Shown here one piece after another: positions 4,999 through 61,200 of a DNA stretch of 64,000 bases; the stretch's first letter is position 1; every line of letters begins with the position of its first letter. The stretch spans positions 248,001 to 312,000 of the forward strand of contig JBEWZL010000302.1 of assembly GCA_045837725.1 (NCBI GenBank). Reading direction: 5' to 3'. The notes below the pieces were generated by a model, which saw only the letters and a program-made list of their open reading frames with translations, searched no databases and was not told the DNA's origin. The position numbers were made by a program, and so were the translations under genes. The DNA is from Vermamoeba vermiformis (Eukaryota).

Positions 4999-7900
4999 TT
5001 ACCATTTTTTCTTCCTTCCAGGCTTTTTCTTTTTCTTTTTCTGATCTTCGCTGTACAAGTGCCAGTCATGCTGTTGCGCCACAGCCTCTTTAAGGGCCTT
5101 CTTAGAGGTCAGTGGACCTAATATATCGAGATAACCCTCGAATAGCACCATCTTCGTGTCCGGATCTGACAAGCAGACTTCTTTGAAACTTTCAGCGCTG
5201 TAAAATATGACCAAGAAACTGTCATTGGACAATTTAGCGACGATTTGGCCCGGCCACCATTTGTAGCCTGTCAACTTGACCCACACTTTCATGCCGACAT
5301 CGAACTCGTTGGGATCTGTTTCACCTGTCACATCGTTTGGATCCAGTTTGACAGGTGTCACTTCAGAGTTGGACACTTCTTTGACAGGTATCGGCTTCTT
5401 GGCACTTTGTTTTCGTGAACTCGGTTTAACAGGTGTCACAGTCGGTGCCACAGGACTAGTTGGCTCGACATTTGACGGCTGATCCTTCGTTTGTTCCGTT
5501 GACTGTTTTGTTGGAGTGACTGCTGTATCGCTTGCGATAGGTGCTAACACTTCAGACTCTGATCTTTTAATGCGTTCACTTCGTGCTCGGGACAGCTCGG
5601 CCATAGAAAACTTGAGCTGAGAAGGAGAAGTTGCTGGCGAGGACGTGCCTTCTTTGGGCAAAGCTGGGACATTTTGTACTGAGGCAACTTCGGTCACTAA
5701 GGCACCAGGGGCTGTAGCAGCACTGGGACTGGTTTCGTTATTTACAATTGGTGCTTGTTCTGTGTTAGTCATGGTGGCAGTTGCCGGATTGTGAAGAACC
5801 TCCGTGACGGAGTTAGTGGCAATGATTGGAGCAGCCCCTCAGACATAAGCGATTCAATAGTTGTAGGCGCGTTTTGCTCGGCAGCGACGCTAGTGTCTTG
5901 CTGTGCGGCATGATCCATGGACAGTTGTGCTGCTTCCACGAGGAGTGACTCAGCAGTGTTACTTTGGTTTTCCGCCTCAGTTGCTCGTTGTTGATCGCCT
6001 TCAGTTTGCATTGGCACAACGGAGTCAACAACACTTTGTGCCTGATCTGCGACAGTGTGCTGCTCGTTGTCTGCCATGTTATTCTCGCTAACTTGTAGTG
6101 CTCCCTCTTCGCTCGTCTGTTGCACCTGACCAATTTCCTGGACCACTTCGTTTTGGTTGTCAAGAGCTGATTGTTCAACGACCTCCATTTGCTTCGCGTC
6201 ATCATTCGTCACATTTGGTTCCACGGCACTTTGAGCTTGATCGGCAACAGGGTGCTGTTGTGCCTCAGTCTCCATTGGCTGTTGCTCTTGTGGTGCTATG
6301 TTGGGCTCGGTGAGCTGCTCCCGTGGTTGTTGGGCATCAATTGCCATGCTGTCATCTACAGACACTTGACTCTCTCCAATCGCCTCGTTAATGACTTGAG
6401 TAGCGATCTCACTCAACATGAGGGCCTCTTCGGGCGACAAGTTTGTCGTTGAAATGACAGACTGAATGAACTCAGATTGATTGTCGAGCTGTGCTTGCCG
6501 CTCTGGAAGCTGTGCAGCTGATGACTCTTGAACAGGAGCATCAACTTGCATGGCAGCTTGATCGCTAGATGCACTAGGGACCGTTGTTTCAGTAGCTTCT
6601 GTGCCGGCTGCGTCAGTGTCCATTGGCGTTTGTGCCTCGGGCACTTGTGTTGGAGGAACTAAGCTTGCTTGACTAGCGTTGAGTGGAATTTCATCTTGCG
6701 TCTGTGTCAGCTGCATGCTTCTATTGAGAGCTGTAATGTTCTCCTCGCTCATCGGTGTCGCCGTGTTCGTATTATTGACAGCTTTACTAGCGTCAGTACT
6801 CTCACTTGGTGCAGGCAATTCTTTCACTTTTGGCTTTTTCTTTGCCGCCGCTTCGATTCTTTCTCGCTTGGCGTTCCAGGCGACTTCAAAGTCGTGCAAC
6901 ATATCACCACAAAACATGTCTGCCAAATTGACCCACGTGCACAACGTCAATGGAAAGCCGTGCCACTTGACGAGGAATTGCACGAGTTCTGTATTTACAT
7001 TCTTCCTCTTCAAGTAGATCTTGTCCACTACATACTCCTCGCCCTCATCTGATTGACATTAGCTCCGCTGTGTGATGCAGATAACACGACTTACCATCGA
7101 TGACAATAGGCTCGATGTCGCGCTCTATAAGAGGTGCCGATGATCTTTTTCGACCTCTCTTAGCTCCTGTGCTCGTTCTTGTCGGCTGCACTCTCTTCTC
7201 CTTGGTTTGTTCAACTTCTTGCTTTTCTCCGGCAGGCAACTCAATTTTGTTCTCGTCACCAGACTTGGTATTATCATTGTTGGGAAGATAGTTGTTATCA
7301 GTAGCGCTAGTATTATCTGCGACTTGACTAGCGGTGACGTTAGTGTTGTTCGGAGCAGCAGCCTCTTTAGCCTTCTTTTCTGCTTTCTTCTTGGAAGCCG
7401 CTTCTTTAATAGCTGTAACGACTGTAGTCCGGTTAGTGCCTGTGTATAATGTGTAGTGTTTAGAATTACCCTTCTCATCATCATTGCTGACGAGATAGTG
7501 GTGCACAGACTCAAAGCCCAAGCTCTTGACGGCGTCAATGGTCAGTGCCCCTGTTGGCTTCTTGCCACTCAATACGCGACACGTGCTGCAGTTGCAGTGG
7601 CCCAAGCACATAGGACAGGTCCATTCTTTGTCTCGCAGCTCCTGCAGACTGTTAGTTAACGTTGACATTCGCAAACAGTTAATGGACTTGCCTCCATGTT
7701 GAGTCCATAACGATTCTTGAGACAACCAGCGCACCAGCCACGATTGTTCTTACAGCCCCCGTCACTGCTCTTGCTGCAGTAAATCACATCTTCATAGGCA
7801 CGTGGTTGACGGCATTGGTGACAGTAATGTCTCCGGCCATCAGGTCCTACTGGTTTCTGAATAAAAACATGTTAACACTGCACGCATCGAACTAAATGAT

Positions 7901-18333: not shown

Positions 18334-20232
18334 ATGTCATTATTTAGCAAGAAGAAGGATAAAACCGACAGTTCGAAGGACAAGAAGGATAAGAAGAGTT
18401 CAACTGACAAGAAAGCCCCTAAACTCTCCACATCCTCCAAGCATCCTTCGAGTAATGACTTGTCATTCAAAAAGGCCAACTTGGATCAAAAAGGTAATTA
18501 TTAATACAATTTGCTATCATAACGCACTTCGTGTGCCTAAATTAGTAAAGAGAAGCTCGTTTTCTCCGCTTCGATCTGAAGTTCTGGCCACAAACGCCTA
18601 ATTGATGGCCTAAAACAGTTTATTTAACTCTTAACCGACAGATCCAAAGGATTGGAACCCAGACGAAGTCGCCGACTGGTTGGATCTGCTGGAAATCTCT
18701 GAAACAAAGGAACTCTTCGTTGACAACGCAATTGGAGGCAGCGAGCTGTTGGAACTCACGGACACGGACTTGCGCTCCATGGGCATCGCGAAAGTAGGCC
18801 ACAGAAAGAAAATTCTTTCAAAGGTCGCTGAAATGAAGGGCATCAAGCTCGCTGACAGCAGCAAGACCAGCATGACTACTTCGATGAGCGACGATACGAG
18901 CTTAGATGTGGGTAAGTTTTTGCATATCTCCTTATTTAGTAAACTTACAAAGCTTTGCGGAAATTCTAACCTGTCCCTAGATCAAATCCTCGTCAAGTGC
19001 TTCCTTAAAGATGAGGTGCGTACGATGAAGATTCGAATGAACGCGCTGTTCGACGAGCTGCAGAAAGACATTCAAGAGATGTACAAGAAGAAACTGACAA
19101 TCAAGTACAAAGATCAAGACGGCGATGAAGTGACCATTGCTCGCGACGAAGACTTGAATGAAGCTATTAGAACGATCCCCAACGGTCCGCGACGCATTTT
19201 CAAGCTCTATTTGTACGAGCGCAAGTCCAGATCTGACGGCGAGAAGAGCGATGACAGCGGCAGCAAGTCTCGTGCTCCTGAAGCCAATGCTGCGATGTCA
19301 ATGATGTTCTCACTGTTCGACTCGCTCTTGGACGCCTGCATTGTCATCAACGACAAGTGCATGGTCCAATACGCGAACAAGTCGTGCGAGAAGTTCACCG
19401 GCTTCAGAGCCCGCGAGATGGTTGGTCGCAACGTCAACATGCTGATGACCGATGAGCACAAGGGCTCTCACGATGCCTATGTCAAGTCATATCTTAAGAC
19501 TGGCCAAGCTAAGGTCATCGGGCAAGGCCGTGATGTTGTTATTCAGCGCAAGGTTAGTAATTACCCAATAAGGAAAAAATTCAATTTTTGTGGATTTAAA
19601 TAATTTAAAACATTGACTTACGAGTTAATTAGGACGGAACTATATGCCCTTGCCGTTTGGAAGTCACTGAAAAGAACATGGGTGACACGCGCTTGTTTGT
19701 TGGTATGCTGAAAGAAGTCAGAGAAACAGTGGCTGCCAAATCATTGTTGCAACAAGAACGTGAAGTGCTTGACAACTTGATTGTCGCTGCTGTCGTCATT
19801 GATGCTTCGGGCACGATTCATTGCTTCAATCACGCGGCAGAGGCATTCTTTGGGTTCAAGCTCGTTGAAGTTGTCGGAAAGAATATTTCAAATTTAATGC
19901 CCTCGCCATATAAGGAGGTAAGTTCGCAGCGAGTGTTGTGTTAAATTTAATTAACTGAGCGGCGAACAAATCGCGCTTCAATTTCGTTGAGATATGATTT
20001 GTGCCTCAGTTTACAACATTTACTGATCGAAATTCAATTCACGCAGAAACACAATGAATACTTGCAAAATTACGTCAAAACTGGCCAAGCGAAGATTATC
20101 GGCATTGGACGCGATGTCGTGATTCAGCACAAAGACGGATCTCTTAAACCTGCCCATTTGTCCGTGACTGAGAAGCGCGATGGTGATAAGAGATATTTCA
20201 CTGGCATTCTCCAAGAGGCCAAGAACAAATAG
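18334..20232 (+). CDS. SAM-PB1-PAS-PAS protein, paralogue A (FixL-like heme PAS)
   Basis: Starts MSLFSKKKDK. SAM WNPDEVADWLDLL...LRSMGIAKVGHRKKIL; PB1 IKYKDQDGDEVTIARDEDL; PAS1 GRNVNMLMTDEHKGSHDAYVKSYLKTGQAKVIGQGR; PAS2 [30 protein letters not shown]. Stop TAG at 20230-20232. Confidence 0.9.
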
Positions 20233-32520: not shown

Positions 32521-34051
32521 TTAGACATCAACTTCCGTAGCACAGTAGAGATCTGAGTTCACTGATAATGATTCGTAAATGTGCTGGCTTTGCAGTGTGT
32601 ACTTGAGTGTCTTGTTCTCATCGCAGAGTAGCTCGCATTGATGGACCAAAGTCACGAGCTCGATTGGCACTGTGGCAAGTGGATTGCGGACCAAATGTAA
32701 CTCTCGTAGTTTTCTGAGGAGGGCGAGTTCAGAGGGCACTGCTTTGAGTCTGTTCTCGGATAGCACTAGCAGCTCCAAGTTAACCAATTGGCTGACACGC
32801 GGGGAGAAGTGCGTGATGCGGTTGTGCTTCAAGTTGAGTATCACGAGGCTAGTTAGTGCATATATTCCTGCAGGGACGTCTTCTAAGCCACTATCGATAA
32901 GGAACAACTCGCGTAGACTGTGCATATGAGAAATTTCATCGGGGATGGTGCACGGAGCCATGTTGTTGCTGATCGACAATCTGATGAGGCTTTGAAGTTT
33001 GGATATGCTAGGGGGTATGTACGTAATAGAATTGAAGTTGCAGTGGATAAAAGTCAAGTGCGGTAGATTGCACAACTCCTCAGGGAACACAGTCATTCCA
33101 TTGGCAGTCATGTTGATGGACAGCAAGCTAGTGAGCTGTGATACCGTTGGTGGCAACTCTTGTATCCTGTTGCGCGTAAATCTGAGCACTGTGAGATTGT
33201 ACAAGGCCCCAATAGAGTGCGGTAGCTCCGTCAGCTGATTACACGAGAGTTCGAGGTGGATCAGCGAGGTGAGCTGGTCTATTTCTTCTGGTAACTCGCG
33301 GAGTTGATTTGAATACATAGACAGTTTGCTCAGGTGAGGCAGTTCGCAGAGTTGCATCGGAAATGAATCAAACTGGTTAGCAGCGAGTGACAGTTTAGCG
33401 AGGTTCTCTAGGTCTCCAAAGTCCTTAGGCAGCTTGCGCAGTGAGTTTGAGTACAGGTTGAGCGAGCGGAGCTGGTAAAGGTTGACGACGCCAAACTTGC
33501 TTTGAATACGACTGAGCTGATTCTTTGCCAAGTCGAGTTTTGTAAGCTTCTCCAAGTTTTCAATGTCACCAGGAATGAACGTCAAGTTAGTTTCTGAAAG
33601 GATCAAGCACTGTAGGTTGGTGAGCTTGAACAGATCGTGTGACAGGTGGGACAAACTGTTGCCGGCGAGATCCAGTGTAGTTAGGTGCTGCAAGAGGCCA
33701 ATAGAAGTCGGGAGAGTCCTTATACCAACATCTTTAAACGTTAGACTCGGCTCTTGCGACGCCAACGATGACCGGATCAGAACATCTCCTGGCAAATACT
33801 CCTGTAATCATAATTAATTATCAAAAAATAATAAATTGCCATATAATATTAATACAAATATATTAGTGAATATAGCGGTGTAGAAAAGAGCAACTGAATT
33901 ATGTATTGAATTCAGCCGCCCCTCATACAACGCATGGGTTGATGGTGCAGCTTAATACTCTTCATTTTACCTGTTCTGGATCGTGCTCCCCAAAGGCCCA
34001 ATTTATGTCAGTCTCCGCTTGTGTTGATACCCCTTCATAGTGTAGTTCCAT
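32521..34051 (-). CDS. Leucine-rich repeat protein (SHOC2/Scribble-type LRRs only)
   Basis: About 15 repeats of LxxLxLxxNxLxxLPxxI. Short first exon from ATG 34051 splices in phase 0 to the large exon. Confidence 0.88.
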
Positions 34052-34282
34052 CGGTTTTCTAAAGAAAGATATTCTGTCGAGCGCATCTGTTGGAAACGCG
34101 TACTGTATTACGCTGCTTGAGTGGACTGCGCTTTTATGGTATTATGCGGTGTGCATCATTGTAAATAATTACGCTGTGGGCTGATTTTTGCTGAAAAATG
34201 CAAACCCGAAAGTCCGGACTTTTTGGCTCACGGCGTTTCGTCATTCAGTTGTTTTTTTTTTCAACGTGGAAACAAGTTAGAT

Positions 34283-37200
34283 ATGGCTGATAAGGGAGCT
34301 GCTTTCAAACACCGCATTATTATTGTTGGTAAGTCGGAATCACAGATTTGATCGGCCGAACGACCACGAGAATTGAAAGATTTGCCGATAATTTATGTGC
34401 TATAATGTATCATCGATTGGATGCCAGCCCATTATTGTTAATTATTATGCTTGTGCAAATTCGGATCTCGATCCTGCCATTTTCTTAATTTTTTTGTGGC
34501 TGCAGTCGTGTAAAATCAGTGCAATTAATTTTCCTAATAATTTTATTGGGATACAACGATATAGCACTTTGGCATTACCATAATCGTCGATAGAAAATAT
34601 TAATTAATTTTCGAATCCGCGATCGCAGGTCCCCCTGGCGCTGGTAAGGGAACACAAGCGAGAAGACTCTGCGAGAACTACAATTTGGAGCTCGTTTCCA
34701 CTGGTGACGTTTTGCGAACCGAGATTGGTAAGCTCCGATCTAGATCGAAAACATTGGCGGTTGCAATCAAAGCCACGATTACTGACTGATTATTCATATT
34801 GCTAGCTTCGGGATCTGTTTTGGGACGTTACATTCAAAACAACTGGAACAGAAATGCTTTGCGCAAGACTATTTTGGAGTTGTTGAAGGATCGTCTTTTG
34901 AACCTCAAGGACGTTAAGGGCTTCGTGTTGGATGGTGGTGCTAAGACTCTCGATGATGCCGAGCGCGTATGTAATGCATTTTTATTTGTTGCGAGCATCA
35001 TAGCTTAAATCTATCCGTACCACAGCTCGATGAAGTGTTCGCCTCGATCGGTGTCAGCGTCGATTACGTGTTTGACTTTGGCAACATGACCGAGCAAGAC
35101 ATGAAGGAAAGACTCAGCGGCCGATTGGTTCACTCTGGCTCTGGTCGCATTTATCACAAGAAATTCAATCCTCCCAAGGAAGAGGGCAAGGACGATGTAC
35201 GTGGAGCTGTTGATATCTGCATTCAAGACGAATTATTAATCATGTTTATTAAGGTCACTAAAGAGAACCTTGAAGTGCGTCACGACGACAAAGAAGAGGC
35301 CTTTGATATTCGCATTGCTGCTTACAACAGCCAAGCTGAAGGCATTCGCGAGCACTACAAGAAGAGCGGTGTCTTGTACAACATTGATGCCACGAAGAGC
35401 ATGGATGAGGTCTACGCTCAAATTAAGGACATTATCGAGAACCCTGAGAACATTCAACGCGCTGTTCAACGCCGTGAAGCTCTCGCTGCTGCCCCTCCTG
35501 CTGCTGCCAAAGGTACGTGATTTAAATATCAATCGAGTCACAGACTAACACGTCATTAGCGCCTGTTGCCGAGTTTGATGACCCCAACTTGAACTTGATT
35601 GCCAAGCCTGTCAGCACTACTTTTGAATGTGTTTTGAGGTACGTGAATTCTCATGGGAGGCTAGATATTTATATTAACGATTATTACAGGCAAATTGTTG
35701 TCGACTTGTCACAATCGAAGGTTCAACACAGCAAATTCCCTGGCACTCAAATCGTGTCCCTCTACAAGGATAACATTTCTTACATGGCTAAATTCCAATA
35801 CAGTACGTACTAGTTTAACCAAATTATCCATCTAATTGCTTTTGCAGTGGTTGCCCCCAAGCTCGATGGTATTCGATATTTCTTGCTCACTTACAACGGT
35901 GGTGTTTTCTTGGTTGATCGACGAATGAACGTCGTTCAATTGAGCTTGTTTGAAAAGTTGCCCGCTCAATTCAACAACTACTTGTTGGACGGTGAATTGA
36001 TCAATGGTGTCAACGAGAAGAAGGCTTCTTTGTTGAGATTTGTTGTCTTCGACGCCTTGTCCATCAACGGCAAGCCTGTAGTTACCGTTGAGAGCTTGAG
36101 CGAGAGACTTCACAGCGCTCATAAGTTGGTTGAATTTTTGAACAGACAACTCGCTGATGTAAGTTTGAACTTAGATACCTTTACGGATTGCTAACGTGTT
36201 GTAGAAACCCGCCCAAAAAGAGAAGTCCACTAGCAACCAACCCAAGAATATCTTCGATGTCTTGAACGCTGAAGAAGAAGAGGAAGAAAAGGTCGTTGAA
36301 AAGAAGCCTGTTGCCCCTGCTGCCCCTAAAGTCGCTTTTACTTTCACTTTCCAAAACTTCCAACCCATCACCAAGACAAAGGAGGTGCTCGAAAGCGAGG
36401 CTGACATGCCGTACAAGACTGACGGTGTTGTTTTCATGCCTGGCCACATGTTTTATAAATTGGGCTACAACCGCTACGCGATGAAATGGAAGCCCGATGA
36501 GCAAAACACAATCGACTTTGTGCTCGAGAAGGAGACTCTGGAAGATGGCAGCCCCGAATATCAGTTGAAGGTGCTCGGCAATGACGGAAAGAATGTAAAA
36601 TACGACGTCTTGCACCTGTTGCCTGTCGCTTTGAAGGAAGGCCAAGAACCCACCGAATTCGACAATTTGACTCCCGAGAAGTTGGTTGAACTCAACGGCA
36701 AGATTGTCGAATGCCGATGGGACCCTGAAATGGACTTGCCTGAAGGTGCTCAAAAAGCTGAAGAGAAGCCTGTTGAGGCCGTTACTCCTCGCGAAGAAGG
36801 CGAAGAGAAGCCCGAAGGTGAAGAGAAAGAGAAGCGTGCACACCGCGGAGGCTGGCGCATTGTCAAGACACGAACTGACAAAGAAACACCCAATGCTCAA
36901 TGGGTTGTCGAGGCTATGATCAACTGCGTCAAGGCACCCATCAGCAAGGAAGAGCTGTTGACCTTCATCACCGAGAAGGCCTCGACTTACAAGTCTCCTC
37001 ATCACCGCGCCAAGGGTCGCATCAACACCTCTCAAGAGTTGCGTGCTCCTGGTTCTGCCACCAAGGCCGATGATGACCGCAACTGGCGTCAACGCAGTGG
37101 TGAAACTGAAGGCGCTGAAGGCACTGCTGAGCCTCCTTCAACACCCTCGAAGTTGGCTCCTGGTGCTACTCCCGCCAGCTCTAACCCCACTACTCCTGCC

Positions 37201-37425
37201 AAGACCCCCTCGAAGCCTCAAGGCTCACCTTGGCGCACAATGGGCACTCCTGCCACCCCCTCCACTCCGAGCTCATCTGCCTCATCTGTTCCTTCTACCC
37301 CGTCAAAGAGTGTCGATGAAGACGATGACTTCATTGATCCTCACAAGGGCAAGCGAGACAAGAAGGGTCCTAGCCGTGGTGGTCGCGGTGGTGCTCAACG
37401 TGGTCGCGGCAGAGGCGGCAAATAA
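34283..37425 (+). CDS. Adenylate-kinase-fold domain fused to an mRNA-capping guanylyltransferase, RGG-rich tail
   Basis: P-loop [33 protein letters not shown]. An in-frame intron at 35513-35559 leads into GTase motifs [25 protein letters not shown], IIIa [35 protein letters not shown]. Confidence 0.9.
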
Positions 37426-37540
37426 AATGATATGTGCGGCTAGCCATTGTCTTCGAATGACATCGAGGAGGCTCATGCTTGTCATTCGGGACATTTTGTA
37501 CTAACAATTGGTGTCGAAATAAATTAAAGCGGATGTTTAC

Positions 37541-38976
37541 TTAATTCTTCTTGTAGTTGCTCTTGTAGCCACCGTAATATTTCTTGAACTCGAGCTTTTT
37601 GTCGAGGTAGATCTTGCCGCGAGGTACTTGCATAGCCGAGGCCAATAGCGAATAGACTTGATCTCCCCAGTCTTCCATGGACAGTGCTGATTTAGGAGCG
37701 GCTGGAATGTCTTCGTCTATGATGTAGCGCACTTCCATCGAGTTAGAGAACTGACAGCACAACTTGAACAAGTGCACAATGAAGCTGCCTACGGTGTAGT
37801 TGGGCGAGAAGTCGTTGTAGTTGTATCTATCGAGCGTGTTAAGTACCGCTTTAGACATATTAATGGCGACTTACTTGAATGAAATGATGTGCACTTTGCG
37901 ATCCTTCAAATCGAACTTGGAGCTGATCACTGGAGCACAGCCCAACAAGATTTGACTGTTGGTGGTAGTGCCTTCAGGGAACACCACTACTGGACCACGC
38001 CATGACTTGCGAGTATCATTCATGACCGTGCTTAATTCTTTGGCCTAGTTCACCGTGTTAACAACCAATACTCCAGTTGACTTCCACTTACATCCTTGGT
38101 GGAGACTTGTCGGTCACGGATGGTGTGCAAGAACGCGCCCAATAGACTCTGAGGCACAACGACGCCCTAGTGTCGAGAGCATTAGTAACAGTGTGATGTG
38201 TAAAGTACTTGAATTACCTTGGCTGGAGTGCCTTTGAAATCATTAGGGACAGCTGTGAATTGCGGTGAAAATCTACAACGAGTCAGCATGAGACGCGATG
38301 TAACGACACGACACTGACCTGTACATCAAATAGAACAACTCGACATATGAGCCGTGATTGCTGATGATAAGATCTCCTCGTGCAATGTTCCGACCGATAG
38401 GCCACATGCTCGGAGTCCTATCGAGTGTCAATTAATATAGCTTAATATAGCAATGTCACGCACTTGTTTTGTTTCTTGGAGGGAATGTAGTGCGTGTTAA
38501 TGCTGTAAAAGCCGAGAATGAGCAACAAGACACGCGCAATCAAAATGTCATGCAGTCGTTGCACAGGGCGACGCAAAAACGGGATGAATATCTAGTCATA
38601 CTGTAGGTTAATATAAAGAGTGTGGTTGAACTAATTTAATTACAGATTTTCATACCAGACTGCTGACAGCAGAAAATAAGACGAGCCATAGGAAGACAAC
38701 CAAAAATAAAGGTAATCTAATCAGTGCCAATACAGGGCCAATCAAGTACCATTTCAATATTGATACTACTGATGACTGCGATTTTGCCTACGTGTCGAAA
38801 ACAATATTATTTTTTGCAAAGCAATCAATGTGCTTCAGAGCAATAATAACACAAGAATATTTAAAAATATTATTTGGAATTATTTTAGAATTTGTTGTTG
38901 ATTATTTCAATACCTTAGGAGGCAAAAAAGGATGCACACCAGTGTATGCGTCGCTGTACTCTCGAAACTTTTCCAT
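37541..38976 (-). CDS. Lysophospholipid acyltransferase, Loa1/Vps66-like (PlsC domain)
   Basis: N-terminus MEKFREYSDAYTGVHPFLPP; ISNHGSYVELFYL; GPVVVFPEGTTTN. Confidence 0.82.
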
Positions 38977-52986: not shown

Positions 52987-54496
52987 CTAGTTGATCTGAT
53001 TGAGCGCGTGAGCCAAGTCACCAATCAAGTCCTCCACATCTTCCAGACCCACCGAGAGACGCACCAAGTTGTCGCTGATGCCCAGCTTAGCGCGCTCCTC
53101 GACAGGCACCGAGGCGTGTGTCATGATGACGGGGTGATCCACCAGCGACTCCACGCCACCGAGCGACTCAGCCAGTGCGAACAGGTGCACATTTTCCAAG
53201 AACTGACGCGCTTGTGTGATGCCGCCCTTCAAGAAGAAGGTGATCATACCGCCATAGCCCTTCATCTGCGCCTTGGCAATCTCGTGCTGCGGATGTGACT
53301 CGAGCCCCGGGTACAAGACACGCTCGACCTTGGGGTGTGCGGTGAGCCAGTGCGCAATCTTGGTGGCACTCTTCTCGTGCTCGCGCATGCGCACGTGCAG
53401 GGTCTTGGTGCCGCGCAACACGAGGAAGGAGTCGAAGGGCGAGGGGATGGCCCCGACTGCATTCTGAATGAACTTGAGCTTGCGATAGATCTCCTGGTCC
53501 CTGCCACACACCACACCCATCACCACATCGCTGTGGCCGTTGATGTACTTGGTGCACGAGTGCATCACCATGTCCGCACCGAGATCCAGCGGGTTCTGGA
53601 AGTAGGGCGACATGAAGGTGTTGTCCACCACGAACATCAGCTGCTTGCGGCGTGCGATGGCAGCCACCTTGCGAATGTCCACAATCTTCAACAGCGGATT
53701 GGTCGGTGTCTCGAGCCACAACAGCTTGGTGGCGGGGGTGATGGCGGCTTCGAGTGCAGATTCATTGTTGAAGTCCACAAAGCTGAATGAGAGGCCTTGC
53801 AGCTGATTGACGCGCGTGAAGAGACGTCGAGTGCCACCATAGAGATCGTCCATGGCCACCACGTGATCGCCGCTCTGCAACAGCGTCATGATGCCGTTAG
53901 TGGTGCTCAGACCAGATGCGAAGACAACACCTGCATATAGCGTTAGAATAGGACGATAAATGGTAGTGCCTATTATTGTAGTGTACCCCATTCAGCATTC
54001 TCAAGCGCTGCCAAGTTGTGTTCAAGTGCATCTCGGGTAGGATTGCCAGTACGAGCGTATTCATAGCCCTTAATAATCCATCGGTATTAATACTACGTGC
54101 ATATTAATAGTATGAATTGCATACGCGATGAACACCCGGAGATTGTTGTTGAAAGGTCGTAGACAAACTGATCGGAATGATGACCGCACCTGTTGCGTGT
54201 CATTGTTAATTATATTATAAATTTCATGGATAGGAGCACGTATGATAAGTATATAATACATCTATTATCCGCGCATCAATTCATGGTGTAATAATTTTTA
54301 ATTACCGGAGCTTGGATCTGCGACTTGTCCGGCGTGAATGGCCTTGGTACCAAAGCCTTGCTCTCTCTTCTTAGCCTATATAACTTGATTATTATTATTG
54401 TCGCAAAGCGGAGCGAACGAGTGAACTTACAGAGATCTGGATCTGTTCCAATACTTGCAGTTGCTGTGTGGCGGTCTTAGTGCTCTCCATATTCAT
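52987..54496 (-). CDS. CTH: Cystathionine gamma-lyase (Cys/Met PLP-dependent enzyme)
   Basis: GFGTKAIHAGQ, YEYARTGNPTR, DDLYGGT, LETPTNPLL, VDNTFMSP, PLP lysine in HSCTKYINGHSDV, AESLGGVESL. Confidence 0.93.
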
Positions 54497-54850: not shown

Positions 54851-55202
54851 AGATTTTCTTACCAGATCTGACACCAACGATAAAGATTTTCAACCTCAGA
54901 ATAAAGCACACATAATACATGTGCTGTTGTATGAATGTATTTATTGCCGATTGAATAAGACAAGTACGTGCGTGAATTAACCTTCAAATTGACTGTGACT
55001 CATTTCATACGCACAAACTAATTAATAACAATTATTGTAATATATTACACTGCAATACTCGTATTTTAGTGCGCAATACTGCGCAGTACGCGATAAAGAA
55101 TATTAATAATAATTATTTTTCGTTGTTAGCGCGCGTGTATTATGAACACCCATTGAACAGCGGACATTAAGAAGACTTTAATATATAAGCCATACATCAC
55201 AC

Positions 55203-58200
55203 ATGGATCTACTCAAAGCGTTAGATGTGCTCTCGACTGCACCGCTGAAGACCGAGTCAGAAGCAGATCGACAAGTCAAGTTGAAAGCACTGCGCACCAT
55301 CGACGAACAGCTCAGCTCCCCTGCACTGCGCGGCACGGCTGATTTCCCGCGCCTGCTCGCCTTCAGCTTGCACAGTCTGCTGCGACTGTTGGGTGACAGC
55401 GACATGAATGTGTGGTCCCTCGCTGAAGAGGTGCTGCACAAGGTCGTCAAGGGCCTCATACGCACACACCACGACTGGATCATCGTCGAGCTCTACAAGG
55501 GACTCAAGGGACAGCGATTTGCAGGCAGAAGTCAGCGCGTGTCACTGGCCCTGCTCGGTCACGTGATTGGCTGGACCTCGCGCTCGCGTCTGAAGAAGTT
55601 GACAGCCGCGATACCGAAGCTGATTGGTCAACTGATCAGCACTGCGCAACAGGACAGCTTGCTCATCGAGGCACTCGCACTGCACTTCGAGCCCATCATG
55701 CGGCACGTGGCACCCTACATCACTGGCACGCAGGTGCTGACCCTGGTCGATCACTGCGTGCTGGCCCTGGTCGACACACAGGGAGCAGTGCGCAGATCAG
55801 GGGCCGGACTGATCACCACGCTGTGTCGGTACTGGCCCTCGCCCGCACTCTTCTATCACGTGTTTGGCACGCTGCGTCAACTGCTGCAGGTATGGCCGTC
55901 TCTTTTGACACTTGTGACAGGTGTGAAATATTTGGTTACTGACACGTGTCATTTTTGCAGCGCACCGACCAGAGCAGCGAGCACGACATACACACGATGC
56001 AGGGTGTGCTGCACTGTTACTTGCGTCTGATTCGCTTGCACCTCGAACAACCGCGGCACACTGCGGAATATCTCCTGCCCGAGATACAGTTCATCGCCTC
56101 CCTCGCCACAGATTCACTGAAACACACGGACAGCAATGTGGTAGTGTCAGCCCTCGAATTGTTGCAAGAACTGCTGTCCTCATTCCTGCACGTGCTGATA
56201 CACGTGTGGACACCAGAGCGCGCACGTGATCGCTTCAAAGCCCTGCTCGACCAGTTCGAAGTGATGCTGTTCGAAGACAGTGCCGTGCGCATCTCCAGCC
56301 AGTCCCTCATCGTGGCGTGTGTGGCGCACATCTTCGAGCACTACTGGATTGACTACGCGCACCTGTCACGTGATCACAGCACTGCACCGAGCACCGTCGT
56401 CACATTTGAGCCGCTGAGCATGTTCCTCGAGTCCAAGCTCGCCAAGTGGTCCTCGCTGCTGGCACACTCTGATCCGCAGCTGCGCGGTCAGGCTGCGCTG
56501 TTCGTCGCCGCCACGCAGAGTGCTGTGCTCGTCAATCCACGTGCTCCACCAGGGCCCGAACCCCTCGGAGCCTGGGCCGCGCAACCACTGCTGCAGCTGA
56601 TCCTGGACGACGAGTCCTCGGTGGCAGCCAAGTGGGGTGGTCAGGCCCTGGCACGACTCTGGCCCGCACTCGTCTCGCACGCCCCGCCTGCCCTGCCCCT
56701 CAGTGTACTCGCGCGCATATTGGCTGTCAAATCTGACGCCTATCTGCTCGTCAAGATCAAGGTAACTTGCACTGATTGCCTTATTTGGTAACTCACACTT
56801 CGCTGCAGGTGCTCAGTTTTCTGTCGCGCGTAGATTTCCGTGTGATTGCAGCCCTGGAAGAGAAAATTCGACACGGCAATCACGTGACTCAAATTGGCGA
56901 TCTGGTACGGCACTTGCCTAATCGGGTTAATGCGTATGTTGACATCTTTGCAGTCCATCAACCGGGGCACAGATCTGCAAAAGACAGCCCTGGACGTCAT
57001 CTTGCAATATCTCGATGACGCAGATCACCGTGTCCGACGAAGAGCTGCAAAGACATTGGTCAAAATATTGCCGCAATTACACGCCGCACCATATTTGGAA
57101 GGTGCGCAGAGTCGATTGCAGGCCCATGCCGTGGTGCTGGCGGAATATCTCCACGGTGCCCCCAAATCTCAGAGCGACAAGCTGAATTACCTTTTATGGC
57201 GCATCGAATCGAGTCTGAATGCGCGCGAGAGTCAGCAGATCAAAGGCGTGTACGAGTGGTGTGCACTGCTGTCGCTGCAGGGTCACGTGATCCCCGCGCA
57301 GTTCATTCCGATCATGCTCGAACACCTCTCTGCCACCAATCTCGCCACGCATCTCGAGACACAACTGCACGCCCTCACGGTCATGGAGCACATGGTCGGA
57401 GAATTGACCGGAGAATTAGCGCCGTACAGCGTGAAGATCTTGACGCACGTGCTCAAAGTGCTGGCAATCACCACGTACATCACGCAGAACAAGAGCGCGA
57501 GTCAGGTGCGCGAGATGAAGAGTGCCGAGGGACTGGCCACACCGCTGCTCGGCGAGGCGATCTATTTGGCACTCTGGGACCGACTCCGCGACACGCATCG
57601 ACTGGCACAGGCGAGCTTCACGGCCAATCTGTTCGATCAGATCCGCTGTCAAGCACTGCTGGCACTCGGCGCGACAGTGCACGTGCTGGGCAAGAATGCC
57701 GTGCCGTACTGCGAGGAGCTGTTGCTGCACTTGCCCGCGCACCTCGACGAGTACCCCTTGGTAAGCGCGCACGTGATGGTGTGCTGAACGTGTCTAACTG
57801 TCATTGCCTAATTAGGAAGTACTCACGTGCGTGCGCGAGCTGTTCGTGTGCGTGTTTCATCCGCAGAACATCAGCAACACCATCCCCCAGGGCAACAGTT
57901 CGCCCAATGCCAGCACCACCCCGCGGCGCAAGAAACCTGCCAAATTAGGACTGCACGAGAAGTTGTTCCACCCGGAGTTGTTCCGCCGCAGTGTGAAAAA
58001 GAATTTGAACTACGCGACCCTGGACATCAACAGCGAAGAGGAGTGGGTGCTGAATGCCAGCACTATAAATAGCACCACCAAGAGCAGTGCCACCGCTAAA
58101 AATACGCTCAAAATGTTCGAGCCACTCGTCACGCTGGCCCTGGCACGCTACCACAACAGTCAGAATCACGTGCTCAAGAATGCCGTGCTGGCACTCTTGG

Positions 58201-61200
58201 TGGCATTCTTGCACCTGGGCGTGGATTTCTGGGCCCTGGACCGCGAGAACAAACTGCTCAAAGAAGTGCTGCTCGATTTGGAACAGGCACGTGATCAGCC
58301 TGTCAGTGTCGAGCTGCGCGATCTGAGCGAGGAAGTGACACGTGTCAATCGCGTGCCTCAACCAGCCACGTGCGTGTTGCCGCAAGTGCGACTGATGCAC
58401 GTGCTGCTGATCACGCTGCTGCACCCCTCGCGTCGCCAGCACACCACAGCCACCGTGCAGCAGTTGGTGGCACTGCTGGCACCTGTCCCGCAAGCAGCGG
58501 TGAAGAGTCCGATCATGAAACAGCCGTTAATGAATCTGTTTGCCACCAAGCCTGCCCTGCCCTCACCCTCGCAGAGCTGGGAGGAACTCAAGCTATTTTT
58601 AGCTCTGCTTGGCGACCTCTTGCTCGATCACGTGCGCGTGTACTTGCCAAATAAGGAAATGCACTCGGTAATCAACAGCATTCTCCGCACGCTGTTCACT
58701 GTCACGCTGGCCGAGGACGATGAAGACTGGCACCGCGATCTCCGCGCGAGATTGATCAATCTGTTCACTGAATTGCTCGCCACGGACCCTTCCGAGCACG
58801 TGATCGACCATCTCCGATTTGTGCTGCAACTCACCAAGGACAAGCACGAGCTGCACCTCACGTACGACACGATATTTGCCTTATTTGGTAATAACACATT
58901 GTATTCAGGGTGTCCAAGCAGATTGCCGATGCGCTGCTAAAATTAGCCACAGACAACACCGAGTCCCTCACACAGCTCGCAGATGTGACAGCACTGTACC
59001 CACTCATCGACCAATTACCTAAAGCGGCAATTGATGTCAGCAAACTGCTCACGAGTCTATTTTTAGCCAACTTGCCCACTAAACTCCGAGCCTATGAGCT
59101 CGACACGGAGATTGAGCGCGCCAATGACAAGCTGTTCAGTGAATTGCCTCCGCTGAACTTGCCAGTGCCAGCTGTCAACTTGTCAACGGTGACAGCAGTG
59201 ACACCTGTCACACCCGTGGACATCAGTGCGGCACTCGTCGAGACATATGTCAGCGAGGACAAGAACACTACGCCACAGGGATCACCAAATAAGGAAGGTG
59301 CGGGATTACTCAGTCCGAGCACGCCTCTCGAGGCCTCGGAGATCTCCCGAGATATACAATCTCCCGAACCTGCAAATGAAGCGAAACAAAAGTCACGTGA
59401 TCATCAACATCACTCGTACGAGAAGAGCGCAGAATTGTTGGCACAGTGCCACCACACGTCACGACTGCTGACACGCCGCACTCGCCTCTGCTGGATTTAT
59501 TCCGCTCTCGTGGTACGTTGTCTTTGTAATTATTTCTCCCTGTTCGGTACTGACCAATGTTCGACAGTTGTTCCGCTTGACAGCAAAGCACGAAGTACGC
59601 GAATTGACATCAGTGACAGCTGCCCTGGCCAAACAATTGTCCCGCACACTCGATCTCGCTGAATTGTGTCACGTGCTCCTCTTGGAGTCCGCACAATTGC
59701 TGGCACTCTACTCGCACGACAGCACGAGCACACGTGCGGTGAATCTATTTTTAGAACAAGTGACGCGACTGATCGATCGCAGCAAACAGTCGAGCAGTCA
59801 GTTGTTGCTCGATATGGGCTCTGATTCGCAGCTGCACCTCCTCGTGCGCGCACTTCTCGACCAGGGCTCGTCACGTGATCGTCACGTGCTCACCAATCTC
59901 ATCGAGCACGCACACCTGTCCACCACTGGTCTGTTGCTCGCGCAGTTGTTGCTAAATTTGGAAGCATACGACGTACTGCGCTATCTGTTCGATCACGTGC
60001 GCAATAAGTAAGTGACCAAATATGGCAATAGTGCGGTACTAACTCTTTAAATAGAACGCGTGTCACGTGGCACTCAGAGCTGTTGCAAACATTGCTGTTC
60101 TTGTACCAGTGCAAGTTGATCGTTCATGAACGCTATCACCCGGACAAGATGCGCGCCATGATCGATCAGCTCGTCAACAACGAACCATATTTGGAAGCAC
60201 TGGCACACAACATGCACGAAGAGGTCGTGTTGCAATTGGTGCAATCTTTCACGCAACCCACGTGGCACGACAAGCTGATCTCATTCGTGAACAATCACGT
60301 GTCAGGTGCCGAATTGAGTGCTGTCACGTGCCACCATCTGCTCTTGCTGCTCATCTCAGTGCCACCAAAAGAGCATTCTTTGCGCGTATGTGCTGTTGAC
60401 ATGTTGACAGCTGTCATTCTGACAACTCCGATTTGACAGGTGGTGTTCAAAGTGTTCATGCGACACAGTCACGTGTCAGTGAAGATTGCAGCGGAGAATT
60501 ACATCGTGTCGATGCTGAACGAATTCCACATTGACAAGGTACGCACTCGATGCGCAACTGCAATGACTAACCAGTGGCAGAATGACGCCAGTGTCACGGA
60601 CTCGATGATCAAGCTGCTCATTGACGAGTACCGCGCGCAGCTGCGACCCTCTTTTGTGGTAAGTGATATTCAGCTGCCAGTGTGCATTGCCTAATTTGGA
60701 CAGAATCGCCTCAAAGCCTTCCACTGGCTGCAAATGGAAACTCCCGCGCTGAGCCGCACAGCCGAGATCATCAACCAGGGCCTGGCACAGACCAACACGA
60801 GTGCAACGACTGAACTGCTGATCAATTTCGATGAGTTCGATCACGTGCCTGCGGAGAAAGCTCCGACACCTGTCAAACTAGCGGAACAATCGGAGCTGAT
60901 TCCGACTGACATGAATGCCTTTATTGGCAATTATCTCGCGCGCCAGTTGCCGCACCACGTGAGCAATGCGAAGATGATTCAGTGGTTGACAGCTGTCATG
61001 CACGTGGACAGTCACGTGTTCGAAATCATGCTCAACTGCAAACATTGCAAGTTGAGTCACGTGACCTACTGCTTTCAGCTCAACACTTGTGAGCACGTCA
61101 AACCTCATCTGCTCAGCTTCCTAAAAAGGAAAAACAAAGAATTGCTGGACGAGCGTAGTCACGTGACTGACTGGTCTGAACTCGTGGACTTGACACGTGC

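Follow-up and report, generated by a model that had tools for sequence, protein, structure and literature searches.

An adenylate-kinase-like/mRNA guanylyltransferase fusion in Vermamoeba vermiformis: a candidate TbCe1-type RNA 5'-end enzyme outside kinetoplastids

Introduction

Recapping of decapped or cleaved RNAs requires a kinase that converts 5'-monophosphate RNA (pRNA) to 5'-diphosphate RNA (ppRNA), and trypanosomes are, to our knowledge, the only organisms in which such a kinase has been defined molecularly. The trypanosome enzyme, TbCe1, is described as a cytoplasmic protein with RNA kinase and guanylyltransferase (GTase) activities, which converts pRNA to ppRNA at the expense of ATP and then to GpppRNA (PMC11417388, PMC5027499). 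The corresponding mammalian kinase was still called unidentified in 2024 (PMC11417388), and pRNA kinase and recapping in other eukaryotes figure as open questions in a 2015 perspective (PMC4371356). For Toxoplasma, no homologue of TbCe1 is reported in a 2025 paper (PMC12215270), and in a 2010 phylogeny the amoebozoan GTases are grouped with those that work with a separate metal-dependent triphosphatase (PMC2904801). The present analysis concerns a gene of the amoeba Vermamoeba vermiformis that lies in a stretch of 64,000 nucleotides (the window; contig JBEWZL010000302.1 of assembly GCA_045837725.1, positions 248,001 to 312,000, forward strand) and encodes an adenylate kinase (AK)-like domain fused to a capping GTase.

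The protein is read here as a bifunctional RNA 5'-end enzyme working like TbCe1, that is, as an ATP-dependent pRNA kinase and capping enzyme with a role in recapping, an assignment that is put at a probability of roughly 0.55 and rests on sequence comparison. A literature search, with most subscription journals outside its scope, found no paper on AK-like/GTase fusions outside kinetoplastids. An earlier note, made by a model from the letters of the window, had proposed such a fusion at this locus, and its claims are taken up below beside the evidence that bears on them.

Gene structure and expression

The kinase-like and GTase domains are carried on one spliced mRNA. The coding region is a single open reading frame (ORF) of 819 codons, giving a product of 819 residues, assembled from nine forward-strand exons with GT..AG introns (Table 1). 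Intron-free contigs from three sequencing runs of three separate studies (X1, X3 and X4) have lost all eight predicted introns exactly, including the one at 35513-35559 that separates the kinase exon from the first exon on the GTase side, and all eight joints are carried by one 2560-nt contig of X1. The RNA origin of these contigs is inferred from the missing introns, no run being on record as RNA. The contigs differ from the window at 33 positions, 29 of them synonymous, and what appears at intron 6 as a 52-base skip with an extra A is accounted for by a 51-base intron and a synonymous G>A change at 35690.

This exact splicing in three runs bears out the claim of the earlier note that kinase and GTase are joined in frame across the intron. 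The same note had named a cDNA terminating at a TGA near 35520 as the sign of two separate genes. Frame analysis does place a TGA stop at 35518-35520 if intron 5 is retained; the contigs of all three runs instead splice the intron and stay in frame. On the GTase side, the frame of exon 6 reaches back to a stop at 35523 with no ATG between that stop and the FPG motif, so a separate GTase gene could start only past the motif.

Eight cis-spliced introns in one gene rule out a kinetoplastid host, and the best named relatives of a neighbouring gene are amoebozoan, in agreement with the earlier placement of the fusion outside kinetoplastids.

Conservation in a related genome

A scan of metagenomes with exon 9 of the window as query gave no match. 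A search of metagenome contigs with P0001, the closest protein relative of exon 9 (see below), yielded two contigs, L001 and L002. The first of these (9212 nt) is colinear with window positions 34242-38500 at 78% identity. When the window exons are projected on it, the same nine exons are recovered with GT..AG boundaries throughout, the frame is kept and exons 1-8 contain zero gap columns. Identity is 81-93% in exons and 44-63% in introns; at intron 5 the splice sites are conserved while the intron itself is 55% identical, against 84-85% in the flanking exons.

The L001 product has 815 residues and is identical to the window protein at 743 of 819 aligned positions. Identical residues number 206/219 in the AK-like domain, 41/50 in the linker and 125/133 in the GTase nucleotidyltransferase (NT) domain; the acidic insert at residues 413-460 is identical at 44 of 48 residues, and the RGG tail is conserved with a small indel. 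Ratios of nonsynonymous to synonymous substitution (dN/dS, Nei-Gojobori) are lowest in the GTase NT domain, at 0.02, with 0.05 in the AK-like domain and 0.12 in the linker, and these low values place both halves and their junction under purifying selection, which is strong on both domains.

Two side observations concern the gene and its transcripts. Intron 1 (34329-34628) measures 300 nt against 45-78 nt for the other seven; it interrupts the codon that immediately precedes the P-loop, and its position is kept in L001. The spliced contigs of runs X1, X3 and X4, 95-99+% identical to the gene (34200-37500), come from three studies and stand under at least three organism labels (A, B and C).

Domain architecture

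Pfam scanning was carried out on the translations of seven exons, exons 1 and 6 (about 15 and 26 residues) being too short. It identified ADK (PF00406)/AAA_17 in the P-loop exon, ADK_lid, mRNA_cap_enzyme (PF01331) and mRNA_cap_C (PF03919), together with weak ligase-type matches, and in these seven translations no RNA triphosphatase family of either the triphosphate tunnel metalloenzyme (TTM) or the cysteine-phosphatase type was found, as the earlier note had anticipated. A profile hidden Markov model (HMM) built from the AK-like domains of the family described below matches the domain of the window at E 1e-84. The GTase is complete, with motifs I, III, IIIa, IV, V and VI, the catalytic Lys of KxDG and the oligonucleotide/oligosaccharide-binding (OB) domain all present, so that motif positions and Pfam concur in the complete capping GTase with KLDG at 35859-35870 that had been claimed. 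The low-complexity region and the RGG tail that follow also have the composition reported before (Table 1); indeed, all sequence elements claimed earlier are found where they had been placed.

Structural comparison gives the same picture. The family profile matches capping enzymes, with 3rtx and 3s24 at about E 1e-54 and 4pz6 and 1p16 also matched. An AlphaFold2 model of the family member P0006 (pLDDT 73, pTM 0.65) matches both AK and capping GTase folds: Foldseek returns 1p16, 4pz6 and 3s24 as top GTase matches and AKs at a target-normalised TM score of 0.6-0.84, with no solved chain covering both domains among the structure matches of this model.

Table 1. Features of the fusion gene and its product (nucleotide positions in the window).
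Feature	Position	Strand	Residues	Remarks
Whole coding region	34283-37425	+	819 aa	ATG 34283, TAA 37423-37425
Exons 1-5	34283-34328, 34629-34727, 34806-34966, 35026-35196, 35254-35512	+
Exons 6-9	35560-35638, 35690-35802, 35848-36158, 36205-37425	+
Intron 5, kinase exon to first GTase-side exon	35513-35559	+		47 nt, GT..AG, CTAAC-type branch site
AK-like domain	34313-35463	+	11-229	across introns 1-4; Pfam ADK, AAA_17, ADK_lid
ATP P-loop GPPGAGKGT	34631-34657	+	16-24	Lys22
TGDVLR, kinase part			40-45
Family signature Y-I-x-N-N-W-N...L	34829-34861	+	57-67	in place of AMP-binding G-x-L-V-P-D loop
VLDGGAKT	34925-34948	+	89-96	in place of LDGFPR
LID segment (SGRLVH to VRHDD at 133-171)	35116-35298	+	133-174	with Arg and Asp-Asp; across intron 4; ADK_lid E 4.9e-10
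Ala/Pro-rich linker	35464-35711	+	230-279
GTase NT domain	35712-36501	+	280-512	Pfam mRNA_cap_enzyme E 1e-14 on exon 8
FPGTQIVSL, GTase part			288-296
GTase motif I KLDGIR	35859-35870 (KLDG)	+	314-319	catalytic Lys314
GTase motifs III LLDGEL, IIIa FVVFDAL, IV DGVVFMP, V KWKP	within 35712-36501	+
Acidic low-complexity insert, motifs IIIa-IV	36156-36345	+	413-460	longer than in other family members
OB-fold domain	36502-36972	+	513-669	Pfam mRNA_cap_C E 2.6e-13; motif at 36853-36897 (aa 630-644)
S/T/P/A-rich region	37033-37320	+	690-785	48% S+T+P; nine [ST]P dipeptides
RGG/RG tail	37372-37422	+	803-819	five RG dipeptides in last 17 residues

The remodelled acceptor site

The kinase half is plainly related to long-type AKs, the family profile matching human AK2 (PDB 2c9y) at E 1.2e-60. 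AK chemistry consists of the transfer of the ATP gamma-phosphate onto a nucleoside 5'-monophosphate, which is the reaction needed to convert pRNA to ppRNA. The window protein keeps the ATP P-loop, the LID and the catalytic arginines, and in the nine members compared the G, P, G and K of the P-loop, the arginine of GDxxR and three further arginines, including those at the start of and after the LID, are invariant. Absent from it are the AMP-binding elements of true AKs, namely the G-x-L-V-P/S-D loop, the arginine of LDGFPR and the AMP-specifying Gln. The alignments and the AK2 profile comparison thereby uphold an earlier observation that LDGGAK replaces LDGFPR and that the G.LVPD segment is missing, with P-loop and LID intact.

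These changes are shared across the family. Relative to AK2, members lack two residues at the L-V-S-D loop and carry a conserved N-W-N immediately before it; this NWN motif is present in most long and short forms aligned, exceptions including P0006, P0042, P0085, P0099 and P0109. The position of the LDGFPR arginine is R or K in most members aligned (Lys94 in the window), and that of the AMP-specifying Gln is D, E or G in most (Asp98 in the window). Exon 3, which encodes the part that binds the nucleoside monophosphate (NMP), matches Pfam ADK at only E 0.03, below the cut-off.

In AKs the G-x-L-V-P-D loop and the following Gln are taken to read the adenine of AMP, and two basic residues presumably hold the acceptor phosphate. 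An altered loop and Gln alongside retained basic and catalytic residues would then mean that phosphate binding and catalysis have been kept and that recognition of the base or nucleoside has changed, a pattern that would be expected if the acceptor had become the 5'-terminal nucleotide of an RNA. The conserved changes of the family fall exactly in the AK acceptor pocket and provide a sequence signature for further searches.

A family of kinase-GTase fusions

Relatives were sought with HMMER in 1.84 billion representatives of 50%-identity clusters, with exon 9 (265 residues) as query; 368 matches were obtained at E<=0.001, and the best 150 were listed. Among the matches listed only one is close, P0001, which is 91% identical and corresponds to the exon-9 ORF of L001. 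Pfam scans were run on 44 listed matches and then on 24 proteins (19 further listed matches plus P0153, P0165, P0182, P0190 and P0199). ADK or ADK_lid was found together with mRNA_cap_enzyme in P0002, P0006, P0008, P0011, P0013, P0016, P0031, P0042, P0049, P0058, P0064, P0066, P0074, P0085, P0097 and P0109, and weakly in P0199. Of the 150 representatives listed, at least 24 contain an AK-like domain detected by an HMM of 16 family AK domains and also match the GTase HMM. In this family the AK-like domain is always fused to a GTase, across distant members. The defining features, an AK-like domain with G-x-Y-I-x-x-N-W-N...L and, after it, a GTase that belongs to the kinase-fused clade, are found in the window protein, and on sequence grounds the proteins constitute a conserved, previously undescribed AK-like/GTase fusion family of wide distribution.

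Amoebozoan carriers of the fusion include Cavostelium apophysatum (P0006) and Dracoamoeba jomungandri (P0008), both from EukProt, and three JGI records of the family are named 'adenylate kinase'. A short subfamily of about 490-550 residues lacks the LID (P0011, P0031, P0049, P0058, P0074, P0085, P0097 and P0109). More distant combinations of P-loop and GTase are seen in the P0153 group, in the P0199 group and in CHLRE_12g524850 of Chlamydomonas reinhardtii; P0153 has 35 relatives on long contigs. In the ESM Atlas, P0006 (score 0.93, 178/256 features) and P0153 (0.95, 199/256) are nearest to one common cluster, in which 96% of members carry PF01331 and 51% AAA_17 and which is commonest in Euglenozoa. 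This is no more than a lead towards homology with TbCe1.

Several observations were made on these relatives along the way. P0011 lies on an intron-free 56-kb contig, and a single-protein scan of viral contigs with this short-type protein returned no relative. The proteins P0153-P0198 have 600-700 residues, combine P-loop and GTase and lie on long contigs; P0170 and P0171 list one contig size (1,460,039), and P0177, P0179 and P0180 another (128,121), which suggests tandem or multiple paralogues per genome. CHLRE_12g524850 (P0165/P0203) is an uncharacterised protein of 1529-1566 residues in which an N-terminal P-loop is accompanied by the KxDG signature of guanylyltransferases. A fungal origin of the window, suggested by the style of its introns and by a match to P0152, a Mycotypha 'adenylate kinase-domain protein', was set aside: P0152 has the G-K-L-A-P-D-D and LDGFPRT of an ordinary AK and lacks a GTase, and the named sequences closest to a neighbouring cystathionine-lyase exon, at 61-67% identity, are amoebozoan.

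Phylogeny of the GTase domain

The 208 proteins matching the GTase HMM were retained for tree building if they covered it from position 30 or earlier to position 300 or later, and 29 near-duplicates were dropped, leaving 110 rows. In a quick tree of these rows all 18 fusions recognised by Pfam fall in one group of 42 rows (SH-aLRT 92), the sister of which is a group of 56 rows (93) containing all ten cysteine-phosphatase-type enzymes together with Ceg1-like rows. Of the 42 rows in this group, to which the window protein belongs, 25 match the family AK HMM.

A more careful tree was built from 64 chosen rows, comprising 25 AK-positive, 34 canonical and four P0153-group rows and one GTase-methyltransferase; the selection left out the 17 AK-negative rows of the clade, the majority of the long-branch rows and all other plain rows. 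A branch supported at 100/99 parts 29 rows (the 25 AK-like and the four of the P0153 group) from the 35 others, of Ceg1/RNGTT type. The LID-less short forms make up a single clade of 16 rows (100/98), and the window protein lies in the unresolved long-form part. Because the rows were selected, this tree speaks to the grouping of kinase-fused GTases and not to whether every member of the clade is fused. A comparison with Ceg1 and RNGTT had been suggested as a check in the earlier note, and it places the GTase of the window outside the canonical clade. The note had further envisaged either a wider distribution of recapping enzymes or a convergent origin: the first is borne out for the fusion by the listed clusters that carry it, and convergence is not favoured for the groups sampled, since the 100/99 branch keeps the kinase-fused GTases together.

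Proposed function and alternative explanations

The proposed mechanism would proceed as follows. The N-terminal domain, probably descended from a long-type AK, would use its retained ATP site and phosphotransfer machinery on a rebuilt AMP pocket, in which the NWN motif stands for the G-x-L-V-P-D loop and Asp occupies the AMP-specifying Gln position. This pocket would take the 5'-monophosphate nucleotide at an RNA end, in the reaction ATP + pRNA -> ADP + ppRNA. The C-terminal GTase would then form a Lys314-GMP adduct and pass the GMP to ppRNA, giving GpppRNA, and the S/T/P-rich region and RGG tail would most likely tether the enzyme to RNA or ribonucleoprotein particles. RNA as the kinase substrate, a role in recapping and a cytoplasmic location are thus all predicted, the RGG tail being compatible with the last but not diagnostic of it.

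A number of points weigh against this assignment. The acceptor-phosphate position in the window holds Lys, not Arg. Since nearly every catalytic residue of AKs is retained in the kinase, it may also act on free NMPs. The 17 of 42 clade rows without a recognisable kinase domain, with N-termini that are short or unrecognised, may be fragments or stand-alone GTases. The protein could, moreover, be the organism's only GTase.

This last point touches on an alternative in which the protein is the main nuclear capping enzyme and its P-loop domain substitutes for a triphosphatase, converting pppRNA to ppRNA either hydrolytically or by passing the phosphate to a nucleotide. The missing triphosphatase domain would fit, and the same substitute role was reportedly proposed for the P-loop domain of TbCe1 in the early literature on that enzyme. 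The AK fold, however, carries out phosphotransfer rather than hydrolysis, the site that has been remodelled is the acceptor (NMP) site and not the ATP site, and the GTase is parted from those of Ceg1 and RNGTT type by the 100/99 branch. In addition, the amoebozoan GTases sampled in the 2010 phylogeny are described as functioning with a separate metal-dependent triphosphatase, in other words as a canonical system (PMC2904801), an indirect hint that the fusion exists beside the main capping enzyme. A main capping function is therefore considered unlikely.

It is likewise improbable that the N-terminal domain is a kinase of free nucleotides, acting on AMP or supplying GMP/GDP for capping, with fusion to the GTase serving co-localisation and RNA not a substrate. 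The deletion of the AMP loop and its replacement by NWN, the D, E or G found in most members at the Gln position and the poor Pfam match of the NMP-binding exon 3 all speak against such a role, as does the conservation of this pattern in distant members, always alongside a GTase; on the other side stand the strength of the AK2 match, the intact P-loop, LID and catalytic Arg, and the retention of Arg or Lys for the acceptor phosphate.

A third possibility shares the biochemical arguments for recapping and differs in the RNA, which would be a 5'-monophosphate species other than decapped mRNA, such as endonucleolytic fragments or non-coding or foreign RNAs. The class of RNA cannot be read from the sequence, RGG tails are found in RNA-binding proteins generally, and next in line among the Atlas neighbours of P0153 come kinase-ligase enzymes that heal and seal RNA ends (scores of 0.76-0.82, under the 0.9 mark); nothing positive argues for any particular class of substrate, however, and this account is given a low likelihood. 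Finally, an erroneous joining of separate AK and GTase genes, or a decaying pseudogene, would draw on the stop that follows from retention of intron 5 and is rejected with near certainty, given the exact in-frame splicing in three runs, the lack of an ATG for a separate GTase ahead of the FPG motif, the conservation of structure and frame in L001 at dN/dS 0.02-0.12 and the recurrence of the fusion in at least 24 other clusters.

The locus carries an expressed and strongly constrained fusion of a kinase-type domain to a GTase in an amoebozoan, and would be a source of the required kinase activity if the protein is indeed a recapping enzyme of TbCe1 type. A broader proposal, more doubtful than the functional assignment though worth entertaining, is that AK-derived pRNA-kinase/GTase fusions form an old and widespread eukaryotic lineage, sister to the nuclear capping GTases, that extends through Amoebozoa, other protists and probably giant viruses, with related P-loop/GTase fusions in Chlamydomonas and Euglenozoa. 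Were this so, dedicated recapping of pRNA would be an ancestral or repeatedly retained eukaryotic pathway rather than a kinetoplastid oddity, and the NWN-bearing remodelled AK fold could serve as a template in the search for the mammalian pRNA kinase.

Other features of the window

Directly upstream of the fusion gene, and divergent from it, is an ORF of 428 residues (32521-33807, reverse strand) in which a leucine-rich repeat array is apparent by eye. A cystathionine gamma-lyase exon (52987-53991, reverse strand) has relatives at 94-95% identity, and its best named relatives, at 61-67%, are from Balamuthia, Heterostelium, Dictyostelium and Acytostelium (Amoebozoa) and from the heterolobosean Acrasis. 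Eight of the ten EukProt matches looked up are named, seven of them amoebozoan (Clastostelium, Pyxidicula, Luapeleamoeba, Ceratiomyxa, Synstelium, Flabellula and Cavostelium) and one heterolobosean. A huntingtin-like gene (55182-59662, forward strand) has long ORFs with a Pfam match to Htt_N-HEAT_1 at E 4.9e-22; it is GC-richer than the rest of the window and is consistent with the amoebozoan placement. On the reverse strand an ORF with a chromo domain (E 1.3e-7) lies beside a long ORF without a family (5769-7058 and 4999-5838, respectively) and may be part of a retroelement. The exon at 18635-19603 (forward strand) unusually brings SAM, PB1 and PAS domains together in a single frame.

Comparison with known systems

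The protein is most fittingly placed with enzymes of the TbCe1 kind, as one from a new lineage, the comparison with TbCe1 being made by its published description only. Like TbCe1 so described, it joins a kinase-type P-loop domain at the N-terminus to a GTase at the C-terminus within one polypeptide and has no triphosphatase. Its kinase is plainly AK2-like with a LID, a fold subtype that TbCe1 may or may not share. It differs in that its host is an amoebozoan and not a kinetoplastid and that it carries a long S/T/P and RGG tail, whereas TbCe1 is reported to be tuned to the kinetoplastid-specific, hypermethylated cap-4 ends (PMC11417388). Another kinetoplastid protein, the EIF4E6/EIF4G5 partner G5-IP, is described as having predicted nucleoside-triphosphate-related and guanylyltransferase domains in a TbCe1-like structure (PMC5750579, PMC10810786), and resembles the window protein to that extent.

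Each half also has its own points of reference. The GTase shares the fold and all six nucleotidyltransferase motifs of Ceg1/Pce1 and of metazoan and plant RNGTT, but lies across the 100/99 split from the Ceg1/RNGTT type and is fused to an AK-like kinase instead of a cysteine phosphatase, with no TTM partner evident. The kinase shares P-loop, core, LID and catalytic Arg with AK2, AK3 and bacterial Adk, but has NWN and a two-residue deletion for G-x-L-V-P/S-D, Asp for Gln and, in LDGGAKT, Lys for Arg. A looser analogy exists with the Pnkp-type and Trl1 enzymes, which combine a P-loop polynucleotide kinase with a covalent nucleotidyltransferase working on the end that the kinase has prepared; their kinases, by contrast, phosphorylate a 5'-OH, and ligation rather than capping is the task of the transferase.

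A functional parallel outside kinetoplastids would be the mammalian cytoplasmic complex of RNGTT, Nck1 and a 5'-monophosphate RNA kinase, which is described as carrying out the same sequence of reactions, pRNA to ppRNA to GpppRNA (PMC4371356, PMC11417388). There the kinase is a separate protein and the nuclear GTase is reused, whereas the Vermamoeba protein would place both activities in one polypeptide.

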